64,000 nt of DNA from Reclinomonas americana ATCC 50394 (lineage: Eukaryota), in the NCBI GenBank assembly GCA_048213135.1, contig PS015082.1, positions 162,466-226,465 of the forward strand, given 5' to 3'. A program made the translations under genes and the position numbers. This document shows, piece after piece, positions 1,032 to 60,881 of the stretch. The notes below the pieces were generated by a model. It was not told the origin of the DNA and did not search any database. It saw only the letters and a list, made by a program, of their open reading frames with translations. Position 1 is the stretch's first letter, and the number at the start of each line of letters is the position of its first letter.

Positions 1032-2435
1032 GCGGAGGGCGGCACGAATCTGCTGGGCCCGCTGGTCTTTGTGCTGTCGCAGCCAGTGGCGGCCGGACGC
1101 ACTCGGCAAGTGTGTGTGCTGACCGACGGTCAGGTCGGCAATCGCGAAACATGCATCGATCGTGTGGCTGCTGAGAAGCACTCGACCCGTGTGTTCACCA
1201 TTGGTCTCGGATCCGGTGTGGATCGGCTCTTGGTATCCGAGTTGGCGCGCGTGGGTCACGGCTCGTGCGCGTTGGTGGACCCTGGAACGAGTGAACTGGC
1301 GGCGATAGTTGTGGGACAGCTGAAGGAGATGCAAGTGCCGGCAATCACCAACTGCGAACTGCGCGGATTGCCAGCGCATGCACGACTGTGCGTGGACGCG
1401 ATTGCACCGAGCTTTGCCAACAAGAGCACATCGGTGTATGTGTTCTTTGAGGAGAGCGAGGAGAGCGGGTTTGATGTGGAGTTTGTGGCGAGTGTGGGTG
1501 ATGGTGAGTGGGGTGATAATCGAAGGAGTTGAATGGAGAAAGTGTGTTTGCTGACTGTTTGTGTTGCAGATGTGATTCGGCAGACTGTGCGGATTGAGGG
1601 AGGCGGAGGACGTGCACAGAGCGGAACGATGTTGCATGTGCTTGCAGCGAACCAGCGGATCAAGGAGCTTGAGGATCGAGCGAACAAGGGAGCAGCAGAG
1701 TTTCGTCGTCATCTGTTCGAAAGCATTGAGTTGATTGATCTCTGACTGTGGTGTTGTTGTTGTTGTGGAACGAGCAGAAAGGCGGAGATTGTTGAGCTGT
1801 CGACGACGTTCAATGTGGCATCGTCTGAGGCGTCGTTTGTGGCAGTGGACACGAGCAGTCGTGGAGCGCTGTCGAGTGCACCGGTTGTGCGCGACATGAA
1901 TGTGTTGCTGCAGGCTTTGATTCAGGCAGATGCGGCGCCGATGGTCCTTGGCTGCACTCTGCCGGGTTCGACTCAAAACAGTGGTATTAACCTCGCGTAC
2001 GCTCGTGGAGCGACGAAGAGCGCCGGCTGCTGTGGAGGCGGTGGTGGTGGCGGAAGCTACAGTCCGCCGCCATCGCCGAGGAGCGAGAGACCGCTCCGCA
2101 GTCGGCAGCCACCGAGGTTGGAACCACTGGATCAACTGCTTTTCTCGCAGGCAGCCTGTGGTGCATGGAGCGATGCCCACGTTGTCGCTGCCGCTCTCGG
2201 TGTCCGTGTGGATATGCTTTCGTGCGACATGCCATCTGGTGTCGATGAGAGCTTGTGGCTCACTGCGATCGTTGTCGCTTTGCTGGAAGGACGGTTCGCA
2301 GCCAAGCAGGCTGAGTGGATTCTCATTGTCACGAAAGCAAATCGGTATCTCGCCCGCCACAATGCCAGCGGACTTGTGCAGCTTGTACGCCAGTCGGCGC
2401 TGGCAGCGCACGTTTCCCACGGCGAGCGTGCTTGA
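1032..2435 (+). CDS. VWA5A/BCSC-1-like VIT+vWA protein, copy A (3' part; 5' part in gap)
   Basis: GGTNL, VLTDGQV and RVFTIGLGSGVD vWA motifs; C-terminal LFSQ..GAW...LWLT..VV..LE...EW.LI..KA module; spliced with GT-AG introns. Confidence 0.8.
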
Positions 2436-2657
2436 TGCCGTTTTTTTGTCAATCCAGCGTGTACAGTGCTCTTTAGATTGCAGTTGTTGATAAAGTTGAG
2501 GTTATCTGCACTCGTCCCCTTTGTGCAATGGGCAACATGCATAGGTCCCCTGGCGTTGGACTGTCGCGTTGGGACTGGACGCTGCATTCCTGTCACGACA
2601 AGAAATTCCGAACACACGCCGTTTTCATCTCTGGCTGGGAGCACACACACCTCGGTC

Positions 2658-5600: not shown

Positions 5601-6716
5601 GTGCTGACTGTTTGTGTTGCAGATGTGATTCGGCAGACTGTGCGGATTGAGGGAGGCGGAGGGCGTGCACAGAGCGGAACGATGTTGCATGTGCTTGCGG
5701 CGAACCAGCGGATCAAGGAGCTTGAGGATCGGGCGAACAAGGGAGCAGCAGAGTTTCGTTTCCCACAAGTTTGTTGTCATTGAGTTGATTGATCTCTAGA
5801 TCTGACTGTGGTGTTGTTGTTGTTGTGGAACGAGCAGAAAGGCGGAGATTGTTGAGCTGTCGACGACGTTCAATGTGGCATCGTCTGAGGCGTCGTTTGT
5901 GGCAGTGGACACGAGCAGTCGTGGAGCGCTGTCGAGTGCGCCGGTTGTGCGCGACATGAATGTGTTGCTGCAGGCGATGACCGTACCGAACGATCGCTCT
6001 GGGCTAGCTGGACTGCAGCCAGCTGCAGCGTACAAGCGCAAGTCGTTATTGTTCCATGGAGGTCGTGGCGGTGGTCGTGGTGCGGCGGCTCGTCAGGCTT
6101 CGCATCGTGACCGAGATCGCGACCGCTGCACAGCTGCAGTCGGATTCGGGAGAAGGGCACGACAAGTCGACGATTACGATGGTTCATCGTCTTCTATGAT
6201 GCTGCAGTCTATGCCGGCTGCTGCCCGATCGCGATCACGATCGCCAGAGAGCGCAGTGCGATCGCGAGGGGACGCTGAATTCTTTGGCTTCTCAACCGAA
6301 AGGTTCGCACGCTCAGGAATGTCTTTCGGTGCACGTGGAGACTCTACTGGGGCGTCGCCTGTCGAGTGCAGAGTCGATCGCGAGCGTGAGCGGGAGCGAC
6401 GTGTTGACCCCTTGTCCGCCTCTTCGGCCCAGCGATCGCCCATCGACACTGTCCTCTTCTCTCAAAATGCCAGTGGCGCGTGGGCAAATTCCGCCGTGGT
6501 GGCCGCTGCTGTTGGTGTGGACGTCGCCACGTTGCTGCAAGGCAAGCCAGCTGATGTGGAGGAGACGCTGTGGCTGACGGCCGTGGTGGTGGCCCTGTTG
6601 GAATTGCGGCATGCAGCCACCAGGAGCGAATGGGAGCTGATCGCCGCCAAGGCCTCTCGGTTCCTGGCGAAGCGTCAATCCAGCGCACTCATCGAGCTGG
6701 CAAAGAGTTGTCTGTC
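2658..6716 (+). CDS. VWA5A-like VIT+vWA protein, copy B (interrupted by gaps, stop codon not visible)
   Basis: VIT domain (QRYEN...EAVLSVPVD...A..TYDDALASG...F.VHLGRL.PG), vWA exons and C-terminal module. Confidence 0.8.
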
Positions 6717-7803: not shown

Positions 7804-10800
7804 ATGAGGCCATTTGTGATTACCTGCGGCGGTCGCTGCATCAACCGGAGGCCACCGATGCCGGTGCCGGTGCCGGCGATGCCGCAACCCGAGTTGCCCG
7901 CACGAGTAGAGTTGGTTCTGAAGGGTATGTCTGTGCATGTTTCTGTGCATGTGTGTGTCTGGAGGCTAAGAATTCACTCTTGCGCAGCCACGCGCATCAC
8001 CTCTGCCATTCGCAACCACGCTGCCACCATCGAGGTGCTGCAGCGCTACGAGAACGACTCGGCCACCGATGTTGTCGAGGCCGTCCTCAGTGTGCCCGTC
8101 GATGCGGGCACGGTGGTCGCCGACTTTGCCGTGGCGCGTGTGGACGGAAGAGTGATTCGTGGTTCGGTGAGACCGCGAGAGGAGGCCGCCGACACGTATG
8201 ACGATGCACTGGCGTCGGGACAGGCGGCGTACATGGTGCAGCAGAAGAAGGACACGCAGCGCAAGACGTTTGAGGTGCACCTGGGTCGGCTGGATCCTGG
8301 TGGTGAGTGAGTGAGTGAGTGATTGAGTGATCCGCTTGTGAGATCTCATTTGGTGAGCAGAGTCGGTGACGTGCATGGTGAAACTGGTGCGGGAGGGAGC
8401 ACTGGAGCCAGTGGGAAACACGTTTGTGCACGTGATCGAAGCGGGACTGTTGCCTTCATTCGGGGATGCTGGGTGAGTGCGATTCAATGTTGTTGTGGTG
8501 GTGGTGGTTGTTGAAGAGAAGCGACTGACTGCTCAAGTGCGTGTGTGTGCGTGTGATAGACCTGGACTCGATGAGTATGAGACACCACTGGGCAGCTTGC
8601 CGGTCAGTGGCCTCTCGGTGGTGGTCCATGTCGAGTCCGACAAGGCGATTCGCGATGTGGAGGTGAAGAACTACCAGGTGGAGATTGTGCGATCGGAGGC
8701 CGACCCGTGCAAGGCGACAGTGCACCTGTTGGACGTGAGTCGGGAGGGGAGCCGTGCGCGGCCGGCGGCGTTTGAGACGCGAGTGAGTGTGGATGGAGTG
8801 GAGTTCCCGTCGGTGTGCGTGGAGCGATACGCGGAGGCGGTAGATGGTGGACGACAGCTGTGTGCGAGTGTGTTGTTGGCGCCTGCACTGCATCCGACGG
8901 TGACGTCGCACGAGGCGAACACGGAGATTGTGTTTGTGGTGGATGTGAGCGGGAGTATGGATGGGCAGCCGCTGGAGGAGAGCAAGCGGGCGTTGCGGTT
9001 GTTCCTGACGAGCCTGGACGAGGGTGTGATGTTCAATGTCCTCAAGTTCAACAATCGACACGAGTCGCTGTTCCGAACGAGTGTGCCGTTCAGCGACGAG
9101 TCGGCTGCACGAGCGAGCTCGTTTGTGGAGCGAATGCAGGTGTGTTTCAGTGTTCCTTTTTTAATCTAAACGTCGACTTGCTGAGCTTATGCGAATCACG
9201 GCAGGCTGGGGGAGGTACGAATCTGCTGGGCCCGCTGGACTTCGTACTGTCGCAGCCGGTGGCGGCCGGACGCACTCGGCAAGTTTGCGTGTTGACCGAC
9301 GGTCAGGTCGGCAATCGCGAAACATGCATCGATCGTGTGGCTGCTGAGAAGCACTCGACTCGTGTGTTCACCATTGGTCTCGGATCCGGTGTAGACCGGC
9401 TCTTGGTATCCGAGTTGGCGCGCGTGGGTCACGGCTCGTGCGCGTTGGTGGACCCTGGAACGAGTGAGCTGGCGGCGATGGTTGTGGGGCAGCTGAAGGA
9501 GATGCAAGTGCCGGCGATCACCAACTGCGAGCTGCGTGGACTGCCGGCGCATGCACGACTGTGTGTGGACGCGATTGCACCGAGCTTTGCCAACAAGAGC
9601 ACGTCGGTGTATGTGTTCTTTGAGGAGAGCGAGGAGGGCGGATTCGATGTGGAGTTTGTAGCGAGTGTGGGCGATGGTGAGTATGGTGACAATCGAAGGA
9701 GTTGAATGGAGAAAGTGTGTTTGCTGACTGTTTGTGTTGCAGATGTGATTCGGCAGACTGTGCGGATTGAGGGAGGCGGAGGGCGTGCACAGAGCGGAAC
9801 GATGTTGCATGTGCTTGCGGCGAACCAGCGGATCAAGGAGCTTGAGGATCGAGCGAACAAGGGAGCAGCAGAGTTTCGTCGTCATCTATTCGAAAGCATT
9901 GAGTTTATTGATCTCTGACTGTGGTGTTGTTGTTGTTGTGGAACGAGCAGAAAGGCGGAGATTGTTGAGCTGTCGACGATGTTCAATGTGGCGTCGTCTG
10001 AGGCGTCGTTTGTGGCAGTGGACACGAGCAGTCGTGGAGCGCTGTCGAGTGCGCCAGTTGTGCGCGACATGAATGTGTTGCTGCAGGCCTTGGTGCCGCC
10101 GGCGTCGGCGAAGGCTCAGCCTCACCACGGCGGCATTCAACGCAAGCGCATGGCGTCCGCGGGTCGGAATCGCTCTGCACTGACTGCCAGTTCGGTGATG
10201 TCTTCGTCTTCGTCGTCAGGGTGCGCACCCATGTCGCGGCGACTCGCGGGTGCGAGCGCCGTCTGCGCGCCGGCTGCGGAGCTTCAGCGGCGTATGTGTG
10301 AGGATGAGGCGGATGCGGATTGTGTGCCGGAAGCAATGATGGAAATGAGAAAGAGCGCGGAGAAGAAGTCCAAGGCACGCCCGTCGTCGGCGTCGGTCAA
10401 CAGGCCGCAGCTTCAGATGGCGCCCAGTGCCAGTGCAGCGCCTATTCCGGTGGCGCTCTCTGCCCGGGCGTCGTCCATGGCCCCAGCTGCGGTTGGCGGT
10501 GGTGGCCGTGGCGGCGGCGGCGAGAGCAAGTCCCCGCTGGATAAGATGCTCTTCTCGCAGAGTGTCAGCGGCGCGTGGGCTAATGCCGCAGTTGTGGCCG
10601 CCGCTGCTGGTGTGGACGTCGTCACGTTGCTGCAAGGCAAGCCAGACGATGTGGAGGATTCGTTGTGGTTGACGGCCGTGGTGGTGGCCCTGTTGGAGTC
10701 ACAGCACGAGGCGACGCGTAGCGAGTGGGAGCTGATCGCCGCCAAGGCCTCTCGATTCCTGGCCAAGCGCAACGCAGGCGCGCTGGTGGATGCCGCCAAG

Positions 10801-17039: not shown

Positions 17040-18970
17040 ATGAAGCGCGTTGCTGATGTTCGCTCCAGTGGCCAAGCCCTGTTCTTTGACGAGGAGACAG
17101 GCTTGACACTCGACGTGTCGGGCTTTGCTGCGCCCTTTGATGACGTTCTGTCACAGACACTCACATGCACACACAACAGTCTCGTCATGTGCTCACACTC
17201 TCTTTCTATGCACACAGGTGCTGCCGCGCTTCCAGTACGCCTTTGATCGCGCAGTGGCCACCATTGAGGCCATTGAGGTGCGCACAATCTCTCTCTTTCT
17301 GTCAGTGCCGCACAGTTGTTGTTGTGTTTATGTCGAGCAACCCTCTCTCTGTTACAGTCGGGTGCTGTGGTGAATGCCACGGCCGTAGTCGGAGAGAGCG
17401 AGAACCGCCAAGTTGATCATTACAACCTGCGACTGCGTGAGGAGCGAGTGCCGGGCAAGAGCCTCGCGCACTCGTTGGCACTGTGGGATCGTGTGCGCAC
17501 TGATGTCGGTCAGATCCTTGCTGGCGAGTGAATACACGTTGTGTGAGGAGTGCGATGGAGGGGCGTGCAGGTGCTGATTCTCTTGCTGTGTGCACAGGCG
17601 AGGTGGTGAATGCGGCGGGCGGTCGATTCCGCGATGCGATTTTCAATGGCATCGGAGGCTCGTACTTGGGTCCGCTCATGCTGGTCGTCGGGCAGCTCGG
17701 CAATGACTTTAACATGAGTGGTGAGCTGCAGTTGTCTGTTTGTGTGTGCGTGCGTGCGGTCGTCTGAGACGTGCGCCAGACTCTGTGCCGGTCAAGATGC
17801 ACTTTGTGAGCAACACGGATCCGGAGGGCTTTGCCAATGTGCTGCGTCGTGTGGCGTCGCTGGAGACCACGCTGCTGGTGAACATGTCCAAGAGCGGCAG
17901 CACTGCCGAGACCAAGGTGCGCCGTGTGTGTTGTGTTGTCGGATGTGGACAGTTGTCGTGACTGCTGTCGGTCGGCATGCAGGGCAACATGGACACGTTC
18001 AACGAGCTGCTGGCCGCCGCCGCCCGTGCGTAGTGATGGCGTGCTAGATGGTGCTGTTGCGTGCGCTCACAGATTCTCTCTCGATTACAGCGTCGGCAAA
18101 TGTCGGCCTCCACAACATTGCGATCACCACCGAGGGCTCGCCGTTCGACAAGTACGCTCGCGAGAAGGGCTTCCGTGCAATCTACCACATGTTCAACGAG
18201 ACCGGCGGCCGCGTGAGTGTGTGCAGGTGTGTCCCCCACCATGATGATGTTGTTTGCTCCCGAAGAGTCTCATTGCCTCTTGCAGTGCCATTGGCATGGT
18301 GCCGGCTGCGTTTGCCGGCCTGGATTTCGGAAAGTTCCTGGAGGGCCAGTCGCACATGGACGAGCTCACCCGCCGCCCCGACGCCACACGCAACCCGGCG
18401 TTCATCGTGGCCTCGTACATTCAGCACCTGACAAACCGCGTTGGCCCGCGCAACATGATTGTTGCGTCGACCGCTGCAGCGTCACCTTTGTGCACGCAAG
18501 CGGCTGACTTACCTATTTTTTGCGACGTGCAGGTGCTCGGCTACAGCGACTACTTGCGCGAGTTTTCGCACTACCTGCAGCAGTTGTACATGGAGAGTCT
18601 CGGCAAGGAGTACACCAACAGCGGCATTCGCCGCCCGTACGGACAGACGCTGTTTGGTGGCGTCGGCACTGGCGAGCAGCACGCATTCATGCAGCAAGTG
18701 CAAAAGGGCCTGCGTGACTGCTTTGTGCGCTTTGCACATTTCCGCAAGCGCTCAGTGTTGCGTTGTGGCGGTGGCGAGCTTTCTCTGGCAGATCGTTGTG
18801 TGTGTGCTGATTTGCGTCTCCCTCTCCAGTGACTTTGTCAACGAGAAGGCCGGCTCACTCGGCCGCCAGCTGCTGGCCTTTGTGCGTGGCACGCAGAATG
18901 CGCTGGCGCAAAATGACGTGCCCTACATGGACCTCACACTGGAGCACAACGATATGTTCAACTGGGGGTG

Positions 18971-19002
<32 letters not shown>

Positions 19003-19463
19003 CCTGCTCGTATGTGTCGCACACGACTCACTGCTGCGGCGCAGCATGATGATTGCGCTGGAGGAGCGCATTGTCACTGTGCTGGCAGTGATGAACGACG
19101 TCAACGCCTACGATCAGCCCGGTGTGCAAGACGGCAAGTTGGCCGCCGACGCCGTCAACGCCCTTTCGAAGCGCGTGGTGTCGACCATGCCTGCTGCTTT
19201 TGCTGGTGAGGGAGAGGCGTCGCTCACGTGTGCCGGTCACAATATCTCATGACTCACTGTCCTTTCGCACTGCAGGCACGGCGGAGGACTACGCACATGC
19301 TGTGCTGCGTGACAGCGCCGTCAACGTTGTCGACCTCGACGGCATCCTGTCGGACCTGGAGGCCAACCACGGTGTGAAGGACGCGTACCCGACCATCCGC
19401 CTGTCGTCCGCCAAGCGCGAGTTCGTGAATGGCCGTTTCCACTACGAGTTTGCCAAGCTCTGA
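17040..19463 (+). CDS. GPI: Glucose-6-phosphate isomerase (bacterial/cyanobacterial-like signature)
   Basis: GIGGSYLG, SKSGSTAET, GGRVSVCS, QQLYMESLGK, GTGEQHAFMQ, YDQPGVQDGK; about 11 introns. Confidence 0.9.
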
Positions 19464-19602: not shown

Positions 19603-21240
19603 TCATGCTTCGGTGTACAACTCTGCGTCGGACTCGCAGCACCGATTGCACTTGCCCGGTGGCAGCGGGAAGAATATGCTCGTGTCCCTGGAGTGCGTGT
19701 GAGGGTGAGATACGCAAACGGAGCGCAAACAGCAAGCTCCCTCCCTCCCTCCCTCCACCCACCGCTTGTAAATGTTGTATTCGGCGATGCTCCCGTACTT
19801 TTCTCGATTGCGTTTCTCCAGCACTGCGAGACAAAGCCACTGATAAGAACGCGTCGAATAACGGTAAATAGTGGCACGTGTGCTTCTTGATGAACCTGGG
19901 ATACCCGACACAAAGAGCAGCAGGCCGGTGATCCACATGGGACCGGTGATGCTTATCCACCACACACTATGCAGCGACGATGCTGCCTAGGAGATTAATA
20001 CCCAAGCAACACATAGATAGTTGAAACAAACATACTGACGTACCACAGACAAGAAAGATACCGATCCACACCTAAGGCGAGCGGGGGAAAAGGAGTGTGA
20101 GATGCGGTCGAGGCGGACAAGACATCACAACTCCTCGTTACACACCAACACCTCTCCAAAATAGTTGGGATGCCGACTGCACAACGCAAATGCACCGTTG
20201 AGGCAACGAGGTTACGCTGATCGAAGATGGGTGCAGCGACGAGAGACGACGCACCTGTACCGCCACAAGCCGGTGACGGGACCAAACTTGCTCGGATTCT
20301 CCAGCTTCCACTGGTACTTTTGGTAGCTGTCACAGCAGCGTGCGCGACGACGTCAGTGACAATCGCCCACAATTTGCGTGAGACGATGGCGCCGCAAACG
20401 CAACTCGGCGATCGACTCAATCACCAGGCCAAACACAAAGATCACAGTACCGACGTAATCCGACCAGATGAGATGGTACGGCGTGGCTCCGTCGTCCGAC
20501 TCGACGTACACGAACGGGATGGCCACCACAAACACAGTCACCATCTGGAAGAGCCAGAAGAAGCCGAACTTGATGGGATCGTCGCCTGCAAAGTCACAGG
20601 GTCAGACACCAATTGCACTCGGAAGAACAAGGCCAGCTCGGCAAGCGCAACGGACGCGGTCGAAGCGATCGTCTTTGCCAATCTTCGCGATGCGGATGTC
20701 TGTTGAGAGGATAGAGAGAGAGACCAGCAATGCAGTGTGTGAGAGATAGAGACAAAGGAACTGCAGAGCGATCATTGCGGCACGAAACACAGATAGGTGC
20801 CGAGTCGGAGTCCCCATGTCTGCGCAATGCACATCGTGAGATCAAGAGAGGTACAAGAGAGAGGGAGAAGGCAACGCACAGTGACCAAGATGGTCAGCAG
20901 CACTTGTCGCGCCTGCACAAGTGAGAGATGAGCACATGCATGCACGCATCATCTCCATCTCTCTCCGCATTCACGCACAGTGTATGTGTTGTTGATGAAG
21001 AGCGTGAGCAGGCTGAGAATGACAAAGTTGAGACTGTAGCTCATGTCAGTGAGCTGCGTACCACCAACACACACACGCGCGTGCAGAGTGAGTGAGATGA
21101 TGATGTGAGAGACGATGGAAGAGAGCATCGATCCCAACCTTGTCGGTCTTCAGTGTGCAAGCAAACAAGTAGAACCCCAGCTGCAAGCCACCGGTGATGC
21201 CGGCGGAGATGCCCAGCATCGTGCCCGCAGAGTGGCCCAT
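19603..21240 (-). CDS. DUF1295 / steroid 5-alpha-reductase-like membrane protein
   Basis: KDDRFD, ESIAD.QK, GLWRYSRHPNYFGE and SGIP.LEK motifs after splicing. Confidence 0.85.
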
Positions 21241-26941: not shown

Positions 26942-34426
<7,485 letters not shown>

Positions 34427-38631: not shown

Positions 38632-41450
38632 CCCCGAGATGCACACTGCCGGGGTCGCCACTGTGCAGCCGACTGTCGACGTACCACCGTCGCAGCAGGA
38701 GACCCCACACGATGACGAATATGACGACACCACACGCACGCCTCTTCCACCACCACCACCATCGATTCGAAGGCGACCGCGACGACGCACAGCAGAGTTT
38801 GCGTACTTGCACGGGGCAGCGACACCAGGCGAGCCTTTACCGCCTGCTGACAAGCAGGAGACAACATCAACAACAACGACAACAGCAACAGAGGAGAGTG
38901 TTGGTGTTGCGGGGGAGGATATGACAGTGCCGGAGCAGTTGCCTCCACCGCCGGCTGTGATGTTGTTGTTGCCAGCAGCGGGCATTGTGTGTGATGATGG
39001 TGAGTGTGTGTGACTGTGTGTGCCGAAACGGACTCTTGCTCAGCTTGTTGGCAGTGTGTCGTGGCGAGGTGTGTGTGCGAGCGGAGAGACCGTGTGCGCT
39101 GTTGTCGCTCACGTTGCATGTGAGATGCATTGGTGAGTGTTGTGTGTGTGTGTGCGGCTTGTGTGTGCGTTCAGTCGCTCATGGTTGGTGTGCAGAGGAG
39201 GTGCATGCGAGACTGGATGGAAGCGATGGTGCGTTGTTCCGCCCTCTCACAGTCGGTTCCTCCCCGCACCTTCTCATTGTACGCACACGCACCAGGGTTT
39301 ACTGACAAGCGCGAGGACTATGTCGTTGCTTCGTTCGATGTTCCGCTGCCACACACGGAAGGTTGGGCGGCGACAAAGACACCTTCATCAATTCTCTGAC
39401 TGACAGACGTGCGTCGATATCTTTCTCGCGCGTTCACAGACAATGCGACTCGGCTGCACGCTCGCGTCCACACCGACGCACAGTTGACGCTGCCGTTCGA
39501 GTTCCCTCTGCTCCACACTGTGCATTGCAGTTTGAGCAGCGTAAACCTGGATGTGCCCGAGACGCTGGCGGCGTCGGGTGTGCTGCCCATGTCGAGTGCC
39601 GCCATGGCCAACAACAGCATGGGCGTCGAGTACCGCATGTGGGCCGAGTGCGTCTACGGCGGTCCAATGACGGTGTGCAGTCTTTGTTGATAGCGCGCTC
39701 CTTCCTCATTCTGCGTGCGTCTCATCATCGCTCCACATAACTCGCAGGCCTCACCACGCGACACGGCCGTGTCGGACGAGGCGCAAATGTACGTGCTGCA
39801 CAAGTGGCCGTTCTCGCTGGCCGAATGCCTGGAACCACGCATTGTCAGCCACTCTGTGCTTCCTCTGCGGTGCGCCTGCCTCCCTCTCTCTCCCTCACTC
39901 CACGCACTTCCCTCATCGGTCTCACGCACGATCCGCAGTGCGACGCTGCCGCAGACTCTGTATTACCCTGGCGCCACCATCCCGGTGCATTTCGAGTGCA
40001 TGCCCGAGCGCGCTCCGAGCCCTCGTGGCCATCTCGGCGTGGCGGACAATGTGTATGGCGTGTACAGCTTGGTCGACGCGCTTGTGCCGGGCATGGAGGA
40101 GTCCATCAATTCCAAGAGGCACCATCGCCCCCGCAGTCGCAGCGCCAATTCCTCACGCGACGGCGACTTCCTGTCTCCCCACAGGTGTGTGGCGTGTTGC
40201 TGTCGTGGTGGGAAGTGCTCTTTTCTCACACTCGTTTCTGTGTGTTGCGCCAGGCACGCGAGTTGCGGGAGGACTGGCACGCTGTGAATGTGTGCCTCCG
40301 TTTATCGTGAACTAATCGCCTTGTGTCTGTGCAGTCGATCCGGTCGTGGTCGTGGCAGAGCTCGTACGCAGCGTGCGATTGTGCGTGGATCAACGCAAGG
40401 CGACAATCGACACTGTGCTGTGCCGATGCACGGCGCACAAGGACCAGTTTGCTGTGAGTCGCTGTCGTCACTCATGTGAGAGCGGCGATGCGAGTGCTCA
40501 CTCGTGCCGGAACAGAATTTGCGACTGGAGGTGCCAACAATCGTTGCTCCGTCGGGCTACAGCGACCTGGTGCAGTTGCAGTACCTGGTCCGCTTGACCG
40601 TGGCGATGGATCGCGAACGGTCAAACACCATTCAGATGAACATTCCGGTTCGTCGCGAGGACACCTGTTGCTTGCGTGCGACGATGCACCGACTGACTGG
40701 TGAGCGGGTGGAAAACAACAGATCATGGTCACTCATCCACGATGCGTGCCGGATCCGAGCGCGACCGGTCAGTTGCCATACGAGGCATACTTGAACAACG
40801 CACCGGGTACGTGCCTGTGCCATGCCTCCCGAAAATCCTCCACCCCATGTATGTCACTCACCGGGCGATCTTCTCGCACAGCGTACACCTCCAGCTCGCC
40901 CCCGACCGGACTTGGTGCGTCGGGAAATGCTCTCTTGGCGGCAGCAGTTAGCTCACTCTTTCCCGCAGACTTTGTGCGAAGGATGCCGCAAGTGGTGTCG
41001 AAAGTGCCGGAGATTCTGCTGACTCCGTCAGAACATCCGCCTGTCGCCTCTCGTGTACGTAGCGTGATGGATTTGTTTCGTTATTGGTGTATACATTTAT
41101 GAACTGCGTGTTGTACGTGCAGGATGGGCTCACGCTTGTGACCGCCGGCGACGTGACTCTGGAGTACAACCAGCGCACGTTGCGTCCATCTCCCTCAAAC
41201 GCGGCGAGCGCCTGTAGCTGATGCTTGATCGCTTCTCTCTTTGTGCTGCAGTGGAGAGACACGCCGTCTCCCGGGAGTGGTGGCTAGTGGAAGCGGCATC
41301 GGCCAGCCGGCGGTGCTCGCTGGTGGCAGTGGCACAACTGCCACTGCGTCGACCATCCCAGTGGCGACCAGACCGAAACACGAGGTGGTGAACGGGCGGA
41401 CGTACTCCTACGATCCCCCAGCGAAGACAGCCGCGGCACCGGCGCTGTGA
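38632..41450 (+). CDS. Alpha-arrestin-like protein
   Basis: LPFEF.L...P.T, GVEYR..AE, yyPG..IPV, L.VP...PSG.SDLVQLQY.VRL.V...I.M.IP arrestin-fold patterns; MGCSWC N-terminus; exon structure approximate. Confidence 0.65.
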
Positions 41451-41573: not shown

Positions 41574-43450
41574 CTACAAGTCGTCGCCAAGGTCTATTTC
41601 CTCTGGATTCTTCTCCACGGCGGCCGACGCAGCGTGGGCGGCGCACTCTTCGTCGCCGTCAACGTCGTCAATGTCGATCTCTTCTGGGTTGCTTGCCGCT
41701 GTGTGTGTGGGGGGTCAGTCAGCAGTGAAAACAACTGCACCGTGCACCCAACAGCACACGAACCAGCAGTGGCGGCGGCAGCAACCTGCGCATAGTACTG
41801 CATGCTGGAGCTGCCGGCGCCGGCCGAGGCCTCGGCCGCCGTGCCAGCCACGTTCGGCAGGTGTACCAAGTTCTCAATGTCGATCAGTGCGACAAACTCG
41901 TCCGTCTGTGGATTGGAGAATGCATCCGGGCCCAGCATCTCCGGCTGCGAGTACCTGCCCGGTACGTACACTTGCTTGGTACGCGTAAAGTTCTCCGGCA
42001 CAGCCAGAGTGCCTCCACGCCGCTCGTGAACGCGCTGTCGCACCGCCTCCACCTCCTCGTCGCTCACCGGCCAGTCGGCACTGCAGCATCGCGAGGGTGA
42101 GTGGGTGGGTGGGTGAGGTGACGAGAGGCAAGGAGAGCACAAAAGCACGCACGGGGTGCCGTCGGGAGCGCGTGGAATGTAGAGGCGACGCCGACGCGTG
42201 TCGACCAGCGGGTTGCACTTGCGCAACACCGCCAGCCACTCTTCGTCGTAGCTGAATTCGGGCATGTCGGGCGTCCAGGTGGACGACGGTCGCACCTCAA
42301 TCACCTGCAGGAACTCGCGCATGGGCAGGCACTTGTCGAGGGCCAGGAACTTGGTCTCGGCTCCACTCGGGTGTCGCACCAACGCCGAGAACTTGCAGTG
42401 ATGATGTGCGGAGAACCAGTACCGAGGCTGCAGACGATGCAGCAGGTACTCGGAGGCCGGACTGCCAAACTGGTCGCGCTCAATCTGTTCGCTCAACCGC
42501 ACTGGGTCAATCGCACCGCCTTTTTTTTCTTGCTGGAGAGCACATGTACGACGAAACATCTTCCCGAAAGAACGGCTTCTTCTGCAACAGCCAGCTCTTG
42601 TTGCCGTACTCCCAGATGTTGCGTGGCCAGTCGTGCGAGAGGAACACATCCACCGGCCTTTTCACCTGTGCCATCTTGAAGATCTCGAGCTCCCGCGTGT
42701 GATACATGGTGATCACGTCCTTGGGCGAGAACGGCGGAAACTCGTGCAGACCTGTGTGCAGTGCGCACCGGTCATCGACGAGAAGGAGAGAAAGACAGAC
42801 ACAAGCTGCGCACCACTCTCAAACGTCCTCGAGTCGTAGATGCCCGAGAGACCGGCGATCCGCAACCCCCGAAAGTTGACCACGCCCGACGCCCCAATGT
42901 AGTAGATACGCGGTGCCGCCCAGCCTCCATAGTACCTGCCATGGCAAAAGCTCACCAGTCACCAATCTTTTGCTCGACCGCAGCGCACACATGAGCGACT
43001 CAACAGTTCCTTTTGGTGATTCGAGGCCTCGTGGTTGCCGCCAATGTACAGTGTGAGACACGGCGCCTCCAGCTCACCCGAGTAGTACTTGTAAAAGGTC
43101 TTCATGTCGCGGTACTTGGGCTTCAGATTGCAGCATAGCAAGTCGGTCTCGTTGCGAACGGCCTGCGTGCATGCATGTGAGAGAGAGACCGAGAGAGGAA
43201 GGAGACAAGATAGAGGAGGAGGCGCACTTGAAAGTCGCCACAGCAGATGAGCAGGTCGACATGCACACCGCGATGGTCGCGCATGTAGCGAATGGACTCG
43301 TAGATCTCATCAAGGTCGCCGTGTGCGCAGCCCTCAATGGCAATCTGTGTGGCAAGTGTGCGTGAGAGAAGGAGCAGTGAAGAGAGAGAAAGGCGGGAAG
43401 TGGCAGCACGCAACTCGCACAGTGCGCGGCTCACTCTCACTCTCACTCAT
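41574..43450 (-). CDS. DBR1: Lariat debranching enzyme
   Basis: [65 protein letters not shown]-terminal NPEEID repeats. Confidence 0.95.
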
Positions 43451-43507: not shown

Positions 43508-45053
43508 ATGCGCGTTGCAGTGTGCGCCCTCGCACTCCTCCTGCTGTGCACTGTGGCACTGTGTGCTGTTGCGTGCCCTTACTCTTACTCACTCACGCCT
43601 TCTCTCGCAGCTCACACTTTGCACACAGTCAGCATCCTCCTCTGATCACACCTCCAACTGGGCGGTTCTCGTCGGCACCTCTCGCTACTTTTTCAACTAC
43701 CGACACGGTGCCGATGCACTTGCATTGTACGCGTCTCTGCGACGCGCGGGCTTCCCAGACTCGCGCATCATTCTCATGTTGGCCGACGACTTTGCTTGCT
43801 CCACGCGCAATCCACACCCTGGAGTCATTCTGTCGGGCGCCGCACAGTACGCCACCTCTGCGTCGCTGAAACTCGCGGAGGGAGTCAGTCGGTGTGGGAA
43901 GGCACGCAGATCGCCGCTGTCGCAGGAGGAGAACACGGGTGAGGCGGATCTGCTAAGTGGTGGCTTGTACCCGGCGGATCTGGAGGTCGACTATCGCGGG
44001 TATGAGGTGTCGGTGGAGAACTTTCTGCGCTTGTTGACGGGTCGGTGGCCGGCGGAGACACCACTGTCGAAGCGACTGGGCAGTGACAGTCAGTCGAATG
44101 TGTTGGTGTACTTGGCGGGGCACGGTGGCGATCAGTTCCTCAAGTTTCAGGATGCGGAGGAGATCGACAGTCAGGAACTGGCCGATGCGTTGCAGCAGAT
44201 GCATCAGCGGCAGCGGTATGGGCGGCTGCTGCTGATTGTGGACACGTGCCAGGCCATGTCGCTGTTTGACAAGATCGACGCGCCGAATGTGGTGGCCGTC
44301 GGCAGCAGTTTGCTCGGGCAGAGTTCACTGGCCGTTGCGTGTTGTGAACGATGAGATAAGAGGGGAGAGGAGCAACAGGGACTCATTCGTCGCGTGTTTG
44401 CAGTCGTGGGTGAGCGAAGAGCTCGGCACACCGATGCTCGATCAGTACACCAACAAGCTGGCGGCCTTCTTCGACATGTATATGGAGAAGCAGGATGTCA
44501 CGCTGCAGGATATGGTGCGTGCTGGCAAAGTCGGTGAGCGGGTGGGTGAATGGTTTGGTATGCTCAAGGAATTCTTGTGTTTCTCGTCGCCTGGCAGGTG
44601 GATGTGACGAAGCGTGAGACGCTTACCTCCACGGTGGACGTGCGACACACGTTGCCGGTGGGAACCACCCTCTCCGATGTTGCGTTGAGACTGTGGAGAC
44701 AGCCGCGGGCCATCGTCACAGCGACTCACACTCTCGCACACGTGCAGCTCATGTTTGCCGACTTTTTCGCTCACCGCGTCCACGCCAACACCACCGACAC
44801 GGAACGCACGACGCTGTTGCCATCGACCCCGCCTCCACCAATGCCAGACGCGCCGGAAACAGAGTCGCCATCGCCGAGGACGACGACGACAACTACAACA
44901 ACTGCGTCGGAAACGACGACAACGGCAGAGACACGGGAGAGCCAGCAGCACCTGATGACGGTGATTGCCGTGGCGGCCTCAGCATTGGCGCTGCTCTTGT
45001 CGGTAATACCCACCGGCAAGCCAAAGTTCAGCAGGGAAAGGAGAGACGAGTAA
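43508..45053 (+). CDS. GPI8: GPI-anchor transamidase catalytic subunit (peptidase C13)
   Basis: Signal peptide, NWAVLV.TSRYFFNYRH, EVDYRGYEVSVENFLRLLTGR, GHGGDQFLKFQDAEE, DTCQA, C-terminal TM helix. Confidence 0.95.
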
Positions 45054-45111: not shown

Positions 45112-45986
45112 ATGCACGCACAGCTTGCGGTGAAGCGAGTGGCGCTTGAACTGGAGCAGCTGGCCACTGAGCCCCCACCAGGTGTCTCTGCGTACCCGAG
45201 CAGCGAGGAGAGTCTGTACAGACTGACAGCACGTTGTGTGATGATCATGCGAGTGGTCGTGCCTATCTCTCTCTCTTCTTACCTCTCTCTCACGCAGAGA
45301 TCGATGGACCGCAGGAGTCTCCCTACGAGGGCGGCGTGTTTCGCCTGGACGTGAGCATTCCTGATCGGTCTGTGCATGTGAGTGTGTGCATTGGTTATCA
45401 TCTCTCTCACTGTCGCACACACAGATATCCACTCGAGCCACCCAGTGTGCGCTTTGTGACCCCCATCTATCATCCCAACATTGACTCGGAGGGACGTATC
45501 TGCCTCGATCTGCTCAAGATGCCACCATCGGTTTGTCAATCGTCTCACTTCTCCTGCTTTTCGTGTCCTTCTTGCCTGAGTGTGTACGTGTGACAGGGTG
45601 CGTGGCGACCATCGATCAACCTGTCGACGCTACTGTCGTCGGTGCGGCTGCTCATGGCGGAGCCGAACCCCGACGATGGTCTCATGGGTGACATCACCGA
45701 CGAGTACAGGAACAACCGTGCGCTGTTTCTGCGCAAAGCACGCGATCGCACACGGCTGCACGCCAATGGTGGTGGCGATGATGGTGCCGGGGGTGCGCAG
45801 GCGGCAGCCGACGAGTCGCGCAAGAGACCACTGTCGGCCATCAGCAGCAGCGCGACTGTTTCGGCCACCGCCGTCACAGCAGCAGTGTCAACTGTGCCAA
45901 CGCCGTCGCCGCCGACAGCAGTTGTCGAAGAAGAGGAAGACGAAGACGAGGACGAGGACGCGCCACTCAAGAAGCGACGCAAGTGA
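45112..45986 (+). CDS. UBE2T: Ubiquitin-conjugating enzyme E2 T-like
   Basis: [53 protein letters not shown]; acidic/basic tail ending PLKKRRK (NLS-like). Confidence 0.85.
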
Positions 45987-46010: not shown

Positions 46011-47193
46011 TCATGACGGCTCCAGCAAGTGAGCAGCCAGTCGCACTCGTCGGTCGCGCGTCACATCGACCACCGCCAGCCGCTTGAGCAGGAAGAGATG
46101 ATCGTCGTGAACGGGAAAGCTGCCGTCCAGCGCGATACCGTCGCCCTTGGCCTCCAACAGTTTGTCACACAGCTCGACCAGTCCCTGTGAAGACAAGTCA
46201 AGAGTCTGTGCTGCCAGTCCTTCTGTCTCACGCTGGACGCAACGGGCATGCCATCTGCTTGCACCTCCTCTGTCGCATCCACATGAGCCGCAATCTCCTT
46301 CAGCTGCTCACGCAACACCGTGCGCCGTGCAAGAATCGCCTGTCGCATCTGTTGCACCTCGTCGCCACGCGTCGTCGTCATCGCCGACGGATTCGCCACA
46401 CCCATGTCGGCCAGTTTGCGCTGCAGCTGCTGGCGGATCTGCTCGTGCTCCTCGCTGTACTGCTGCTCTCTGCACGCGCGCGCACACACACGCCGCAATC
46501 GGCATCAGACGCAGACGAGGCGCAACGAGCGCACAACCAACGCAACAGTTCGCAGTCTCGCTGAGTGGCCTCTCGTCGTGCTCTCGACGCCACCAGTGTG
46601 CTCTGCAGCTCTTCCACCGCACGTCGCATCATCAGCATCGTCTCTGCATCGTCGCCGCTTGTCGTGCGTGAGCTCTCTGCGCCCACACTGCGTCAACAAA
46701 CACTGCACACACACTGCGTCAACACATCACTAGCAGTCACACACCTGCCGCCAGTGGATCGAGGCACTCCAGACGTGCAATCTCACTGCGAATCGTGGCA
46801 ATCGCTTGACCAGTGCGCGATGAAGGCTGGCGAGCAGGAGCGCTCCTCGACTGCACAGACAACACCGCGGTGTCACACACACAACGAGAATGCACACGCG
46901 CGCGATTAAAAAACACGCGCGAACCAGTGATGACAACTGATCAATCTGCGTCTGCAGCTGCGCACACGACTCTCGCACACGTCTCGTCTCCGCGGCAATC
47001 GCTGCACCCTCCTCGGCATCCACCTGCGCAATGCACTGTGAGTGATCAAGTGAGTGCGCAGTGGTTTTTTCCGATCGCCAACCTCGTGGTGTCTCAGTTG
47101 CTGCAGAAGCGCAGTGTGCTTGGTGGAGCACACGCGCGACACACGCGCTGCGAGTGCTCGAGCGGCGAGAACACGCGCAGTGGGGTCGCCCAT
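46011..47193 (-). CDS. Hypothetical coiled-coil protein
   Basis: Spliced exons with heptad-rich E/Q/R sequence; boundaries approximate. Confidence 0.5.
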
Positions 47194-47254: not shown

Positions 47255-49291
47255 ATGGAGCACTCCAGCGGCGTACACCACGTGCGCCACTCACTCTCTC
47301 TCTCCCTCACGCGCGCTGATGTTGACAGCCGCGTTCACTGACTATTGCTCGTGTCACACACGCAGTGGCAGTGTGCGGCGGAGCGATTGGCGGCGGCCAG
47401 TGCCTCTGCGATGCCTCTGTGGCCGGGCATGACGGAGGAGAGCAGTGGTGGGCGACGATCACGCGCTGCATCGCTCACCGATGTGGTCATTGTCAGTGGA
47501 GAGGTTGCTCTCTCTCTCTCTCTGTCTGTCGTGCCCTGGATCGATCGCTCACTGTGGGGTGTGGGTGGTGAACAGGAGGGTACACGACTGCCGGCACATG
47601 CGGTGATTCTGGCCTCGCGCAACGCGTACTTTGAGGAGATGTTGTGTGGCAGTGGTTTGTTTGTTATTTTCGGCTGCCGCCCGCCCACCTGCATCGTCAA
47701 GGTCGCCCACTGTTGCGTGCAACAGACTGGGCTGAACGAGGCGCTGGTGAGGTCAATCGACGCAGTGTGCCGACGCCGGTCATGGTGCAAGTTCTACGCT
47801 TTCTGTACAGTGGTGCAGTGACGTTTGACAGTGAGACCCTGGTGCCACTGCTGGCGGCCTGCGATGAGATGCGCGTGGAGGAGCTGTTGGCGCACTTGCA
47901 CGAGTTTCTGACGCATAGTCTGACTGCCGACTCGGCCATCGCTATCATGGTTGCGTCCGTCGAAGCGCCTGGGTTCGCATAGCTGATCGTTGCTCACTGC
48001 GTGCAGGAATCCGCCGACACGATGGGCCCGCGCTTCGACGAGCTGCACAAGCGATGCGCCGAGGTCGTATGCAAGAACGCCAAAGCGGCGCTGACGAGCA
48101 GGGCGTTTCAACGCTGTCGCGCCGACACACTCGGTGTCATTCTGCAACGCGACGACCTGATGGCCTCCGAAGAGGAAGTGTGGGACAGCTTGGTGGCATG
48201 GGCCTGCGCACAGTGTCATGTGGCGTCGCACAAGGTCACCGAGTGGAACGACGAAGAGAAGCAGCGGTTACGTGAGATCCTGGAGGAGCCCGTGAAGCAC
48301 CTGCGCCTGCCGTACATGCCAAAGTCGAGGTGAAACAGACCCACTCTGGGAATTCGTCTCTCCTGACTGTGTGTCCTCACTTACGACAACAATGAGGCAG
48401 GGTGCGCGAAGTGTCCGTGAGCACACTGATCCCGGTGGAGCGTGTGCTGCAGTGGACAATATACCTGCTGGAACCGGAAGGAGCGGAGGCAGGGTCCATC
48501 CCTCGGCCTCGTGACGCGCATGTGGCCGCTCGAGTATCGTGCGTGTGGAGTCTGGATGCGACCGACAAGCACTCCTACTACGTGCCCAGTGCAGATGGGC
48601 GCACTGTTGTGTTCAATGCACCGTCGTCACAGTGGCGCGGCTTCATCTTGTCTCATCCCATTCAGTATCCGCGCGGAGGAGTGATTGAGATTACGTGCGT
48701 ACCATGAACGCAGCACGCACCTACACGATGTACACTGATTATTCGTGCGCAGGTGCAAGTTCTCGTTCACCAACACCAGCGGTCGATGCGCGTTTGTTGG
48801 CTTTGCTGCCGGTCATCCAGGAACAGCGGCTCTGATTAGAGACGATGTCTACGCTCACCCGAGCTTCAACCTTGTCAACTACAACAGCAGTCTGCAGTCG
48901 ACCACGAGTTTTCGCCATTTTCCGGTGCGCCGCCACTGCGTGCCTCCCCTTGGGTCACCCCGCAATGGAGTCATGGTCACTGACGCCGTCTGAACAGGGT
49001 GGTACTCCGCTTGACCTCGAGCCGGCTGAGCTGCTGACATTTGTGGTGGACGCGCTCGAGCCGTCGCTGAGCGTGCGTACAACAGGGAATGCAGTGGTTG
49101 GTGACCTCTCAAGCGCTCACTTTGCAGTTGCCGTCGTCCCACTCACCTTCCACTATTAATTACGGCAGAGATTTGACAGCATGTACCCCGCGTGGCGTTT
49201 TCCAGACGAACTCCGCCTTTGCTTCGTGGGATTCAATCCGGCCTCGACATGTACGATAGAATCGGTGCGGGTGCTTTCAATCGGGAGATGA
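47255..49291 (+). CDS. BTB/POZ-BACK domain protein
   Basis: DVVIV, LPAHAVILASRNAYFEEML, VLRFLYSG, L.RDDL..SEEEVWD.LV.W, HLRLPYM. Confidence 0.85.
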
Positions 49292-51596: not shown

Positions 51597-51684
<88 letters not shown>

Positions 51685-54953: not shown

Positions 54954-54993
<40 letters not shown>

Positions 54994-55229: not shown

Positions 55230-55273
<44 letters not shown>

Positions 55274-58905: not shown

Positions 58906-58985
58906 CAACGTCGCGCGTATAATTTTTGATATGTTGTTTTTCCCGCCACAAACGCGAGTGCGCTGCGCCTCACCAGCTCGTAAAG

Positions 58986-60881
58986 ATGGACTTGGAAGCA
59001 GGCGATGCCGACGATCTCCATCGCGGCCTGCCCAACATGCGTGTGTTGCTTGGCAAGTACGGTCGGTGAGTTGCTCACACAGCGACCAACGCGTGTCCGC
59101 CGTCGCTCCTCGCTCACTCTCTCGCTTGCTCTCTCCAACAGCTTCTGCGTGGCCACTCGAGAGTTTCGTCATCGCCACTCTCTCCTTTTCGTTGGTTCAC
59201 TGCGATCTCATCATTCATCATTCATCGACACAGTATTGATGCTGGCGAGGTGATTATGGAGGAGCCGGCGTATGGAATGATGGTGGTGCATGGAGAGAGG
59301 CGACGAGTGTGCGATCATTGTCATGGTCGCTACATGCGGTGAGAGAGAGGCAGAGTGAGAGAGCAAGTGTGTGTGTAATCGCTCACTCGCACGCGCGTGC
59401 GCGCTCAGTCGAAAGGCACCGGGTCAGCCGCCTGAGTTTGCCAACTTGCCGTACGCCTGTGTGGGTGGCTGTGGTGTGGTGTTCTTCTGCTCGGTACAGT
59501 GTCGCCGTTCAGGTTCGTTCAGAGGCTCGTCGTTTGGTTGCTGCGTGTCGGTGTGTGACAAGTGTGTGTGCAGCGTCGGCCGATCATGCGCGCAGTGGCG
59601 AGTGTGGCATCTTTCGCGCGTTTCACATGTTGGAGACCGACATTCGTCGCACTGGCTACGATGGCGACATTACGTCGGCGTACTTGTCGCTGCGGATGCA
59701 GGCGCGACGCAATCTGGAGTTTATGAGTGCGATGGCGTCGTCGGTGGAGGACCGACAGACACATGGTCCAGAGGAGCCGCTGAGTGACGACCAGACAGCA
59801 CTGCTGCGGCGACACATATGGCGTCTGGAGCAGCAGCTGGCCGACCAGGGCACATTGATCAAGTCGCTTCGTGCGGAGGTGGCCAACAGAAATGCCACGA
59901 TTGAGGACCTGGAGAAGCGGATCGAGGGTGTGGTGGGCGCACTGTTGCGTGGCTTGTCACCACCGATTGCCCAACGTGCGGTGGAGGGCGCAGGATTGGT
60001 GGTGGCGGTCGGCGACGCAGGCAAGGCTGCGACGCCGAAGCGATCAACATCGGTTCCTGTTTCACCGTCGTCGTCGTCGTCGTCGGCACCACCGCCGGCG
60101 GCATTTTCGCCGCCCGGCTCGGTCGCAGTCTTGTCGCCATCGATGGAACGCTACGAACTGCAAACACGACGCTCGTCAAGTGCCGCAGTGCAGCCACCGA
60201 CGCCGCAACAACACACACAACAGCAACGACACAATGTCACACCGCCGCCTGCCGAGTACTCGCACTTTACGGCGTTGGCGACCAATTTCGGGCGCATCTC
60301 CAGCGGCGACATGGAGACGTACAGCATGCTGGCGGGTTTCATGCGCCGTGCGTTGGAGGAGGCCGAATCGCGGGTGGTGGCCTCGGAGAAGGAGCTGGTG
60401 GAGGGCTTTTGTCGGATTCAGTGCAACGGCTTCGATCCGGAGGAGGAGTTGTCGGAGGAACTCATGCGCGCCAAGCACGCACAAGACGCTCGCGACGCCG
60501 ACGGCGACACCGATGGGGACTCCAACAGCAACGATCCCTACGCCAGTGCCGTGTATCCGTACATTAGTCTGATGAACCACAGCTGCGATCCAAACGCAGT
60601 GGTGGAGATCGACGCCACGCATGTCGCCCGCTCGCGAGTGATGCGTCTCAGCACGTTGCGACCGATTGCACGCGGCGAGGAGATCAACATTTCCTACGTC
60701 GACACCGACTGGTCGCTGTCGAAGAGACGGGAACACCTGCTCACGTATCACCTGTTTGAGTGCCAAGTTGCGTGCTGCGGCGAGGTGGTGAAGTTGTCGT
60801 TGAGTTCCTCACCGGTACTGTTTGCGCTTGTCGCAGTGTCCACGGTGTCTGCGAGAGAGCGCACTTGCGAGCAGAATGTAA
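58986..60881 (+). CDS. SET and MYND (SMYD-like) lysine methyltransferase, copy 1
   Basis: GR|FCVATRD|IDAGEVI, CDHC...CVGGCG...CS..C, SLMNHSCDPN, GEEINISYVD, FECQ|CPRC. Confidence 0.88.

Follow-up and report, generated by a model that had tools for sequence, protein, structure and literature searches.

An abundant class of 5′ splice sites displaced by one nucleotide in nuclear DNA of Reclinomonas americana

Introduction

The stretch of Reclinomonas americana ATCC 50394 analysed here, called the window throughout, comprises 64,000 nucleotides (nt) of GenBank assembly GCA_048213135.1 (contig PS015082.1, positions 162,466 to 226,465 of the forward strand, renumbered from 1). It is nuclear DNA with a GC content of 57-62% outside seven runs of N (3,937 N in total), in which densely packed genes are split by very many short introns. 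Most of these introns have a 5′ splice site (donor) with G at intron position +5, as in GTGCGT. A second class of donors, typified by GTTGCGT, carries a similar motif displaced by one nucleotide. This class is abundant and has its own sequence rules: T at +3, C at +5, G at +6, a pyrimidine (Y) at +7 and no G at the last exon position (-1). As far as sequence can tell, its members are genuine major-type (U2-type) GT-AG introns, since they run from GT to CAG, contain a branch-site-like motif, restore the reading frame and are colinear with homologous proteins at six junctions.

A first-pass annotation of the window had listed 36 displaced heptamers, 21 on the plus strand and 15 on the minus strand, all of which are present where it placed them. 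It had taken the displaced motif to be a routine donor class, mixed with ordinary donors in at least 14 unrelated gene families, and the analysis bears this out over at least a dozen unrelated genes.

Introns supported by homologous proteins and conserved motifs

Homologous proteins place introns of the class in the genes for PGI (glucose-6-phosphate isomerase), DBR1 (lariat debranching enzyme) and GPI8 (Peptidase_C13). The protein-to-genome aligner used for these genes knows only GT..AG and the BLOSUM62 matrix and is blind to the rest of the donor. The alignments cover 8 of 95 retrieved homologues for PGI, 11 full-length sequences out of 150 listed for DBR1 and 12 of 120 listed for GPI8; a twelfth DBR1 sequence (P0114), whose N-terminal half is unrelated, was dropped. 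The introns are as follows, with "frame-compatible" referring to the reading-frame test of the next section.

17145..17217, plus strand: PGI N-terminal intron, GTTCTGT, 73 nt; 3/8 homologues; frame-compatible
18461..18532, plus strand: PGI intron, GTTGCGT, 72 nt, phase 0, in frame and stop-free; 8/8 homologues; frame-compatible
18757..18829, plus strand: PGI intron, GTTGCGT, 73 nt, phase 2; 7/8 homologues, one taking 18755 (37-nt intron); frame-compatible
18968..19044, plus strand: PGI intron, GTGGCGT, 77 nt, G at -1; 8/8 homologues
42485..42557, minus strand: DBR1 intron, GTTTCGT, 73 nt, phase 0; 10/11 homologues, one taking 42552
42936..43004, minus strand: DBR1 intron, GTTGAGT, 69 nt; 11/11 homologues; absent from the first-pass list
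43345..43414, minus strand: DBR1 first intron, GTTGCGT, 70 nt; Metallophos_2 match starts at the predicted acceptor (residue 35), upstream exon not verifiable
44334..44403, plus strand: GPI8 intron, GTTGCGT, 70 nt; 12/12 homologues; frame-compatible

The donor at 17145 is chosen by only three homologues because the N-terminus of PGI is poorly conserved. The donor at 18968 is the sole verified displaced donor without T at +3, where it has G. In the same alignments the ordinary PGI donors at 17278, 17509, 17917, 18026 and 18227 are chosen by 6/8, 8/8, 7/8, 7/8 and 8/8 homologues, respectively, and the ordinary DBR1 donors at 43227 and 42813, both GTGCGC, by 11/11 each.

Two further features of PGI concern the reading of donors. 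The in-frame intron 18461-18532 is read straight through both by tblastn and by the gene finder. A perfect-looking GTGAGT at 18214 (plus strand) is coding, and the actual donor is the GTGTGT at 18227.

A protein kinase gene on the minus strand contains the following members of the class.

25139..25197, minus strand: intron in the kinase N-terminal region, GTTGCGT, 59 nt; frame-compatible
24443..24514, minus strand: kinase intron, GTTGCGT, 72 nt; Pkinase match covers residues 17-37 of the open reading frame (ORF), predicted first residue 18; frame-compatible
24056..24125, minus strand: kinase intron, GTTGCGC, 70 nt; splits the K of ..IK/LADFG; sequence reading
23912..23987, minus strand: kinase intron, GTTGCGT, 76 nt; splits the T of G[T]PAYCAPE; sequence reading, frame-compatible
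23434..23515, minus strand: kinase intron, GTTGCGT, 82 nt; Pkinase match ends at ORF residue 112, predicted last exon residue 111

Direct reading of the kinase spliced at 24514, 24125 and 23987 gives ..LHE/YLQQIL.., ..AVIK/LADFG.. and ..ENKG[T]PAYCAPE.., respectively. These sequences, DFG and G-T-P included, are motifs expected of a kinase catalytic domain. A search with a kinase exon found no homologue. Ends of Pfam matches coincide with predicted boundaries at three sites (24514, 23515 and 43414), short exons being otherwise of low yield in such a comparison.

The same gene contains three consecutive micro-exons between 24126 and 24318 (minus strand), of 16 nt (24303-24318), 17 nt (24212-24228) and 24 nt (24126-24149), which jointly encode the stretch from the catalytic loop to DFG. 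The donor of the 16-nt exon, at 24302, is GTTCCTT, with G at neither +5 nor +6.

Reading frames and intron boundaries

The reading-frame test uses a 3-periodic Markov coding model whose training ORFs had been confirmed through Pfam or homology; applied to PGI exons kept out of the training, this model gives +6 to +30 bits in the true frame and negative values in the wrong frames. For each donor the best acceptor is taken by a donor-independent score and the best coding frame is found on each flank. The test is whether the GT..AG distance joins these frames, the null expectation being 1/3. Among the 36 listed sites, all that are testable are frame-compatible, 13/13 with strict thresholds and 17/17 with relaxed thresholds (p=7.7e-9, the remaining 19 of the 36 being not testable).

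The test can be extended to every GT in the window. Of the 83 copies of GTT[GT]CG[TC], 26 are testable and 21 of these are frame-compatible; the looser pattern GTT.[ACT]G[TC] gives 25/39. A purine at +7 in an otherwise GTT-type pattern gives 2/14, which is at chance. Sites with a base other than T at +3 are likewise at chance (34/92), as are those with two extra bases (31/94) or one base fewer (36/108); sites with G at none of +5 to +7 give 96/283, and the controls lie at 27-38%. Since the excess is confined to T+3/G+6/Y+7, only that pattern acts in a donor-like way among GT sites lacking G+5. The first-pass annotation had expected an excess of G+6/Y+7 among donors lacking G+5, and at the scale of the window the frame test finds it.

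These results also bear on whether the boundaries are placed correctly. It is very improbable that the donor is in fact the GT at +6/+7, that both ends lie one base downstream (TT...AGN) or that no splicing occurs. A move by one base does leave the protein the same at many sites, for example 18461, 18757, 18968, 43004, 24514 and 24125. However, use of the GT inside GCGT, which lies 5 nt further on, breaks the reading frame, while 17/17 sites are compatible at the listed GT, and this donor was rejected. TT..AGN boundaries were also rejected: at 23987 they turn the G-T-P given by GT-AG, a kinase motif, into G-R-P, and they leave an inconsistent terminal base at the 3′ end, the base after AG being variable and offering no consistent alternative. 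At six junctions, moreover, the homologues have no indel.

Heptamer counts and association with 3′ signals

GTTGCGT occurs in 37 copies on the two strands of the window, compared with a mean of 16.45 (standard deviation 3.91, maximum 28) in 100 dinucleotide-preserving shuffles, none of which reaches 37. Among the 50 copies of GTT[GT]CGT, 21 branch-like CT[CG]A[CT] motifs fall in the bin 40-49 nt downstream, where seven scrambled control heptamers have no peak. A 3′ module, defined as a CT[CG]A[CT] branch motif followed by the first YAG and lying 45-140 nt downstream, was scored for every GT heptamer. It follows 20 of the 37 copies of GTTGCGT against a background of 0.201 (p=5.1e-6), which places this heptamer first among 914 GT heptamers. 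The ordinary donor hexamers have no such enrichment (GTGCGT 20/99, GTGAGT 18/72), nor does a coarse test by class, because most copies of the ordinary hexamers are not donors and lie in GT/GC-rich repeats and exons; the test is powerful only for rare motifs.

A heptamer of the class is also retained in a set of tandem paralogues near the start of the window.

9873..9950, 1700-1777, 5753-5837 and 12960-13038, plus strand: paralogous copies of one intron, GTTTCGT

GTTTCGT is invariant in all four copies, while positions +8 to about +25 have diverged, the next ~17 bases being replaced.

The spliceosome of this organism might need little beyond GU, in which case there would be no special class and GTTGCGT-like strings would reflect composition near weak donors. 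The motif-supported GTTCCTT at 24302 is at least one donor of the kind this would predict, and three of the 106 predicted donors described below also lack G at both +5 and +6. Such an explanation is nevertheless improbable, since T+3/G+6/Y+7 alone is enriched while neighbouring patterns stay at the null of 1/3, GTTGCGT heads the 914 heptamers for the 3′ module, and GTTTCGT is conserved in 4/4 paralogues whose next 17 bases have diverged.

Share of introns with displaced donors

The gene finder used to count introns is home-made. Its final training set consists of ORFs with Pfam or homology support, the earlier self-trained version having been contaminated with wrong-frame ORFs; it still fragments PGI and reads through the intron at 18461. 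When a 3-component mixture is fitted to 86 introns predicted by a donor-neutral version, a GTTGCGT component arises unprompted with a weight of 0.28. With both donor classes allowed, 106 introns are predicted, of which 75 have G+5, 22 are of the GTT type, six have another base at +3 and three belong to neither class. The gene-model score is 2722.1 bits with the displaced class allowed and 2611.2 bits without it.

A stricter set starts from the 49 of the 106 introns that have an acceptor score of at least 3 and a positive coding score on both flanks. Eleven introns supported by homology or motifs were then specified, the missing ones being added and conflicting predictions removed, which gives 58, and dropping paralogue copies leaves 52. 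These consist of 32 ordinary, 16 GTT-type and three other-+3 introns and one of neither class. The class thus makes up approximately 21% (22/106) to 31% (16/52) of predicted introns, and the "roughly one in five" of the first-pass annotation is about right or slightly low.

Anatomy of the displaced donors

The spectrum of heptamers was drawn from 34 members, one for each paralogue group, and the logo from the 16 high-confidence members, for comparison with the 32 ordinary donors. The 34 heptamers are GTTGCGT (22), GTTTCGT (4), GTTGCGC (4) and one each of GTTTCGC, GTTCTGT, GTTGTGT and GTTGAGT. The high-confidence members carry T at +3 by definition, G (13) or T (three) at +4, C (16/16) at +5 and T (12) or C (four) at +7. 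Ordinary donors have a GC-rich core (GTGCGT, GTGCGC), with +3 G21/C6/T4/A1, +4 C14/A7/T7/G4 and +6 T20/C9. The T:C ratio of 12:4 at +7 of the displaced class mirrors the 20:9 at +6 of the ordinary class.

The two classes differ sharply on the exon side. A G at -1 is found in 0/16 high-confidence and 2/34 of all GTT-type members, compared with 20/32 ordinary donors (Fisher 8.9e-7). From intron phases and codon-position composition 10.3 of the 34 would be expected to have it (P=5.6e-4), while T (14, with 7.2 expected) and A (11, with 6.5 expected) are raised.

Inside the intron the class looks like any other. GT...CAG is found in 36/36 tabulated introns, CAG also ends 16/16 and 18/18 introns in the class sets, and CT[CGA]A[CT] lies 10-59 nt from the 3′ end in 30/36 tabulated introns. 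The strict branch motif occurs in 15/16 high-confidence members and 22/32 ordinary introns, a difference that is not significant (p=0.07). Class introns are about 59-93 nt long. The donor consensus of minor (U12-type) introns is [AG]TATCCTT; none of the 34 heptamers resembles it, and a minor-intron origin was rejected.

The narrow length range and the uniform 5′ end are what a mobile, introner-like intron family carrying its own unusual donor would have. Against this, the intron bodies have no similarity to each other: best local scores average 7.8 for pairs inside the class, 8.6 for pairs of ordinary introns and 8.3 for mixed pairs. Because no intron-body similarity is shared, the class is not a mobile intron family, or is one only with extremely small probability.

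Recognition of the displaced donors

We infer the register that is used, and the roles of U1 and U6, from the features above. The explanation that we favour, and to which we give about an even chance, is that these GT-AG introns are recognised one position out of register, by a +1 shift or a slipped U. In the donor, an additional U would set the ordinary core of the lineage, (G/U)CG(U/C), one base further into the intron, giving GU-U-GCGU in place of GU-GCGU. The cut would still fall at the sole GU, and the helix between the 5′ splice site and the small nuclear RNA (snRNA) would slip by one position. The 5′ end of U1 reads A1 U2 A3 C4 psi5 psi6 A7 C8 C9 U10 G11 (excerpt of PMC4856993). In the slipped helix G+1 would take the usual slot of the exon -1G, opposite C9, U+3 that of U+2, opposite A7, and G+6 and U+7 those of G+5 and U+6, opposite C4 and A3. 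Set against this U1 end, G/GUGCGU and /GUUGCGU are identical except for the letter that faces C8. Because catalysis requires GU at the start of the intron, the hand-over to U6 would leave one U of the pair to be looped out of the U6 helix. U6 can pair in a different register from U1 (excerpt of PMC4856993).

A register shift would explain why the extra base is U, why G+6 and Y+7 are required and why -1G is unused. The depletion of -1G fits the placement of G+1 in its slot, and it speaks against a plain bulge with normal exon-side pairing. In such a plain one-nucleotide bulge, corresponding to the human "bulge +2/+3", G+1 and U+2 would pair with C8 and A7 of U1, U+3 would be looped out and G+6 and U+7 would pair with C4 and A3. 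Downstream of GU it leaves the same signature as the shift, with UU at +2/+3 and the consensus displaced by one, and both registers have been experimentally validated in human cells (excerpts of PMC4856993). The sole verified donor with a base other than U at +3, GTGGCGT at 18968, has the -1G that an exon-anchored bulge needs and may work in this way. For the class as a whole a bulge is doubtful: it would gain from a pair between -1G and C9, yet only two of 34 members have that G, and the extra base need not be U, yet variants with another base are at chance in the frame test.

Several observations weigh against the register shift. The intron tallies depend on the home-made gene finder. In a nearest-neighbour duplex model, which assumes a human-type U1 5′ end and not the snRNA of this organism, GTT-type donors have a mean energy of only -0.98 kcal/mol, compared with -2.84 for random GT sites (n=1000) and -5.63 for ordinary donors; all registers are weak, and the shifted one is the optimum in just two of 16 donors. 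The shift predicts indifference to -1G, where avoidance is observed. Furthermore, all 16 high-confidence members have C at +5, where A would be the better partner for U1, whereas C occupies the equivalent +4 in just 14/32 ordinary donors; the class can therefore not be described simply as an ordinary donor plus one U.

These misfits leave some room for a lineage-specific snRNA that would read GUUGCGU directly, with no slip or bulge, whether as a second U1 paralogue, an altered U1 5′ end or an altered U6 box, or for protein-assisted recognition of the donor. Pairing with the assumed U1 is worse than that of random GT sites, which within this model is an indirect pointer towards the relaxed or variant recognition system (U1, U6 or Prp8) that the first-pass annotation had proposed. 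The heptamer is nearly invariant and tighter than that of the ordinary class, and -1G is actively avoided, not simply disregarded. On the other hand, few RNA sequences of eukaryotes are as conserved as the 5′ end of U1, and changing or inserting any one base of the assumed 11-mer gives GTT-type donors no clear advantage over random sites in the energy model (the best selective change, C8A, gives -3.17 against -2.21). A reader of this kind is unlikely, but because of the poor U1 energies, the invariant C+5 and the avoidance of -1G it retains a minor share of the probability. It is equally tentative to suppose that an additional reader, dedicated to a donor dialect of its own, has arisen in this lineage, so that two 5′ splice site codes with a one-base difference in spacing would coexist, each serving a large share of constitutive introns.

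Other members of the class

The remaining introns assigned to the class, outside the genes treated above, are listed here.

20327..20404, minus strand: DUF1295-family gene intron, GTTGCGT, 78 nt; frame-compatible, flanking exon matches PF06966
20586..20651, minus strand: DUF1295-family gene intron, GTTGCGC, 66 nt; gene-finder prediction
22099..22191, minus strand: intron, GTTGCGC, 93 nt; chosen even by the donor-neutral gene finder, frame-compatible
25447..25513, minus strand: intron, GTTGCGT, 67 nt; frame-compatible, strong coding score on both flanks
29901..29968, plus strand: DENN-domain gene intron, GTTTCGT, 68 nt; sequence reading, upstream ORF matches DENN 147-173/186 just before the donor
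30097..30182, plus strand: DENN-domain gene intron, GTTGCGT, 86 nt; frame-compatible, also picked by the donor-neutral gene finder
31929..31995, plus strand: intron, GTTGCGC, 67 nt; frame-compatible
32093..32168, plus strand: intron, GTTGCGT, 76 nt; frame-compatible
41179..41251, plus strand: intron, GTTGCGT, 73 nt; gene-finder prediction, absent from the first-pass list
45233..45297, plus strand: UBC-domain gene intron, GTTGTGT, 65 nt; UQ_con in the downstream ORF, not frame-testable
46470..46546, minus strand: intron, GTTGCGT, 77 nt; gene-finder prediction, absent from the first-pass list
47950..48006, plus strand: intron, GTTGCGT, 57 nt; frame-compatible, one of the two GTT-type donors with G at -1
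59163..59233, plus strand: SET-domain gene intron, GTTTCGT, 71 nt; gene-finder prediction

The Pfam match of the DUF1295-family gene overruns the donor at 20404 by eight residues into read-through sequence and is uninformative on the boundary. Scans of metagenomes found no relative of the exon of the DENN-domain gene.

Within the first-pass list, the donors at 15611, 36295 and 37069, which have no T at +3, are weakly supported or unsupported, as are 60767, 43568, 33731 and 25328. The class also has members beyond that list: 43004, which is verified, 41179, 46546, 63533 and possibly 32775.

Genes and other features of the window

The genes recognised in the window encode PGI, two chitin synthase paralogues, a ubiquitin-domain protein, a SET-domain protein, DBR1, a DENN-domain protein, GPI8 and the protein kinase; a VWA_3 gene family and UBC-domain, DUF1295-family and FAD_binding_3 genes are also present. 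PGI (16.6-19.7 kb) is of the bacterial-like type, and its best named relatives are from Barthelona, Acrasis, Percolomonas, Naegleria and Carpediemonas, the first three being the nearest, with 77-78% over one exon. Metagenome scans returned 25 PGI loci; among the seven aligned there is no close relative with comparable introns.

DBR1 (41574-43450, minus strand) holds two ordinary and at least two GTT-type introns in its own gene, and its protein sequence appears ordinary beside the 11 homologues. GPI8 is closest to animal and fungal sequences (52-55%). In nine of its 12 homologue alignments a 111-nt "intron" (GTACGCC...CTAAG) is modelled at 43847-43957 (plus strand), which is more likely an in-frame insertion of 37 residues.

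Four tandem paralogous gene units occupy positions 1-14000 (plus strand), with a VWA_3 domain in one ORF, and are broken up by assembly gaps of 101-815 N. Their introns are ~90% identical except for the replaced block just after the donor. The two chitin synthase paralogues (Chitin_synth_1; 49300-55500, minus strand) are also in tandem and have intron positions in common, with ordinary donors (GTTCGC, GTGAGT).

The window contains no snRNA gene: Rfam gives no match of any kind at gathering thresholds, and at E<=1 it gives three chance matches, none of them an snRNA. A match to mir-297 at 61047-61112 reaches 39 bits, below the gathering score of 90; it coincides with a CA/GT dinucleotide repeat and is probably spurious.

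Relation to known splice-site registers and significance

Donors in the shifted (+1) register were reportedly described by Roca and Krainer in 2009, and single-nucleotide bulge registers at +2/+3 and +3 reportedly by Roca et al. in 2012. The first-pass annotation had compared the present donors with shifted or bulged U1 pairing, and the likeness holds at the level of sequence, with U+3, G+6, Y+7, no G+5 and almost no -1G. "Shifted +1" sites, as tabulated in excerpts of Tan et al. (2016, PMC4856993), are cleaved at GU and have consensus-like bases one position downstream. They share with the present class G+6, U+7, the lack of G+5, a poor canonical fit and, in the register favoured here, G+1 opposite C9 of U1. 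However, humans have a handful of them, whereas here they would account for 21-31% of predicted introns, with the register inferred from sequence, and the present donors have a nearly fixed heptamer (GTTGCGT in 22/34), a required U+3 and C+5. The human bulge registers resemble the class in the UU after G, and in them the looping out of one base accommodates G+6, but here extra bases other than U are essentially absent and -1G is avoided instead of being used. According to the same excerpts, 68 of 201,541 human sites are predicted to use the +2/+3 bulge and 51 the +3 bulge, and all validated noncanonical registers together make up 1.5% of those donors.

In Caenorhabditis elegans, mutations of SNRP-27 (snrp-27 M141T) lead to the use of donors a few bases away, and of the 26 donors that gain use 14 have G+6 (excerpt of PMC6140464). 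What the snrp-27 and unc-73(e936) cases would have in common with the present class is a one-base "slipperiness" of donor choice in the hand-off from U1 to U6/PRP8 (PMC6140464, same excerpt). The worm sites are mutant-induced or alternative and occur in few genes, whereas those described here are constitutive sites of conserved housekeeping genes. The -1 cryptic site of unc-73(e936) is reportedly itself of the GUU type. The constrained GTGCG(T/C) donors of Ostreococcus (Irimia and Roy 2008, PMC2483917) have the same GC-rich core as the ordinary class here, but the search listing of that paper makes no mention of a displaced class. No paper describing a GTTGCGT-type donor class was found in open-access PMC and bioRxiv, supplements not being covered.

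The displaced kind of donor is therefore already known, while its frequency here is unprecedented and its rules are strict. In the 5′ splice site's transfer out of U1 and into U6/Prp8, the choice of the exact phosphate has been studied mostly through rare human sites and worm mutants; a genome in which the recognition core of a fifth to a third of the constitutive introns, those of conserved housekeeping genes included, sits one base out of place would put that choice to a natural test on a large scale. Gene finders with a single donor weight matrix will misplace many exon ends in this genome, as the donor-neutral and single-class runs did. For the organism itself, the class predicts co-adapted snRNAs and proteins, to be sought in the U1 5′ end, U1C/Luc7, the U6 box, Prp8 and SNRNP27.

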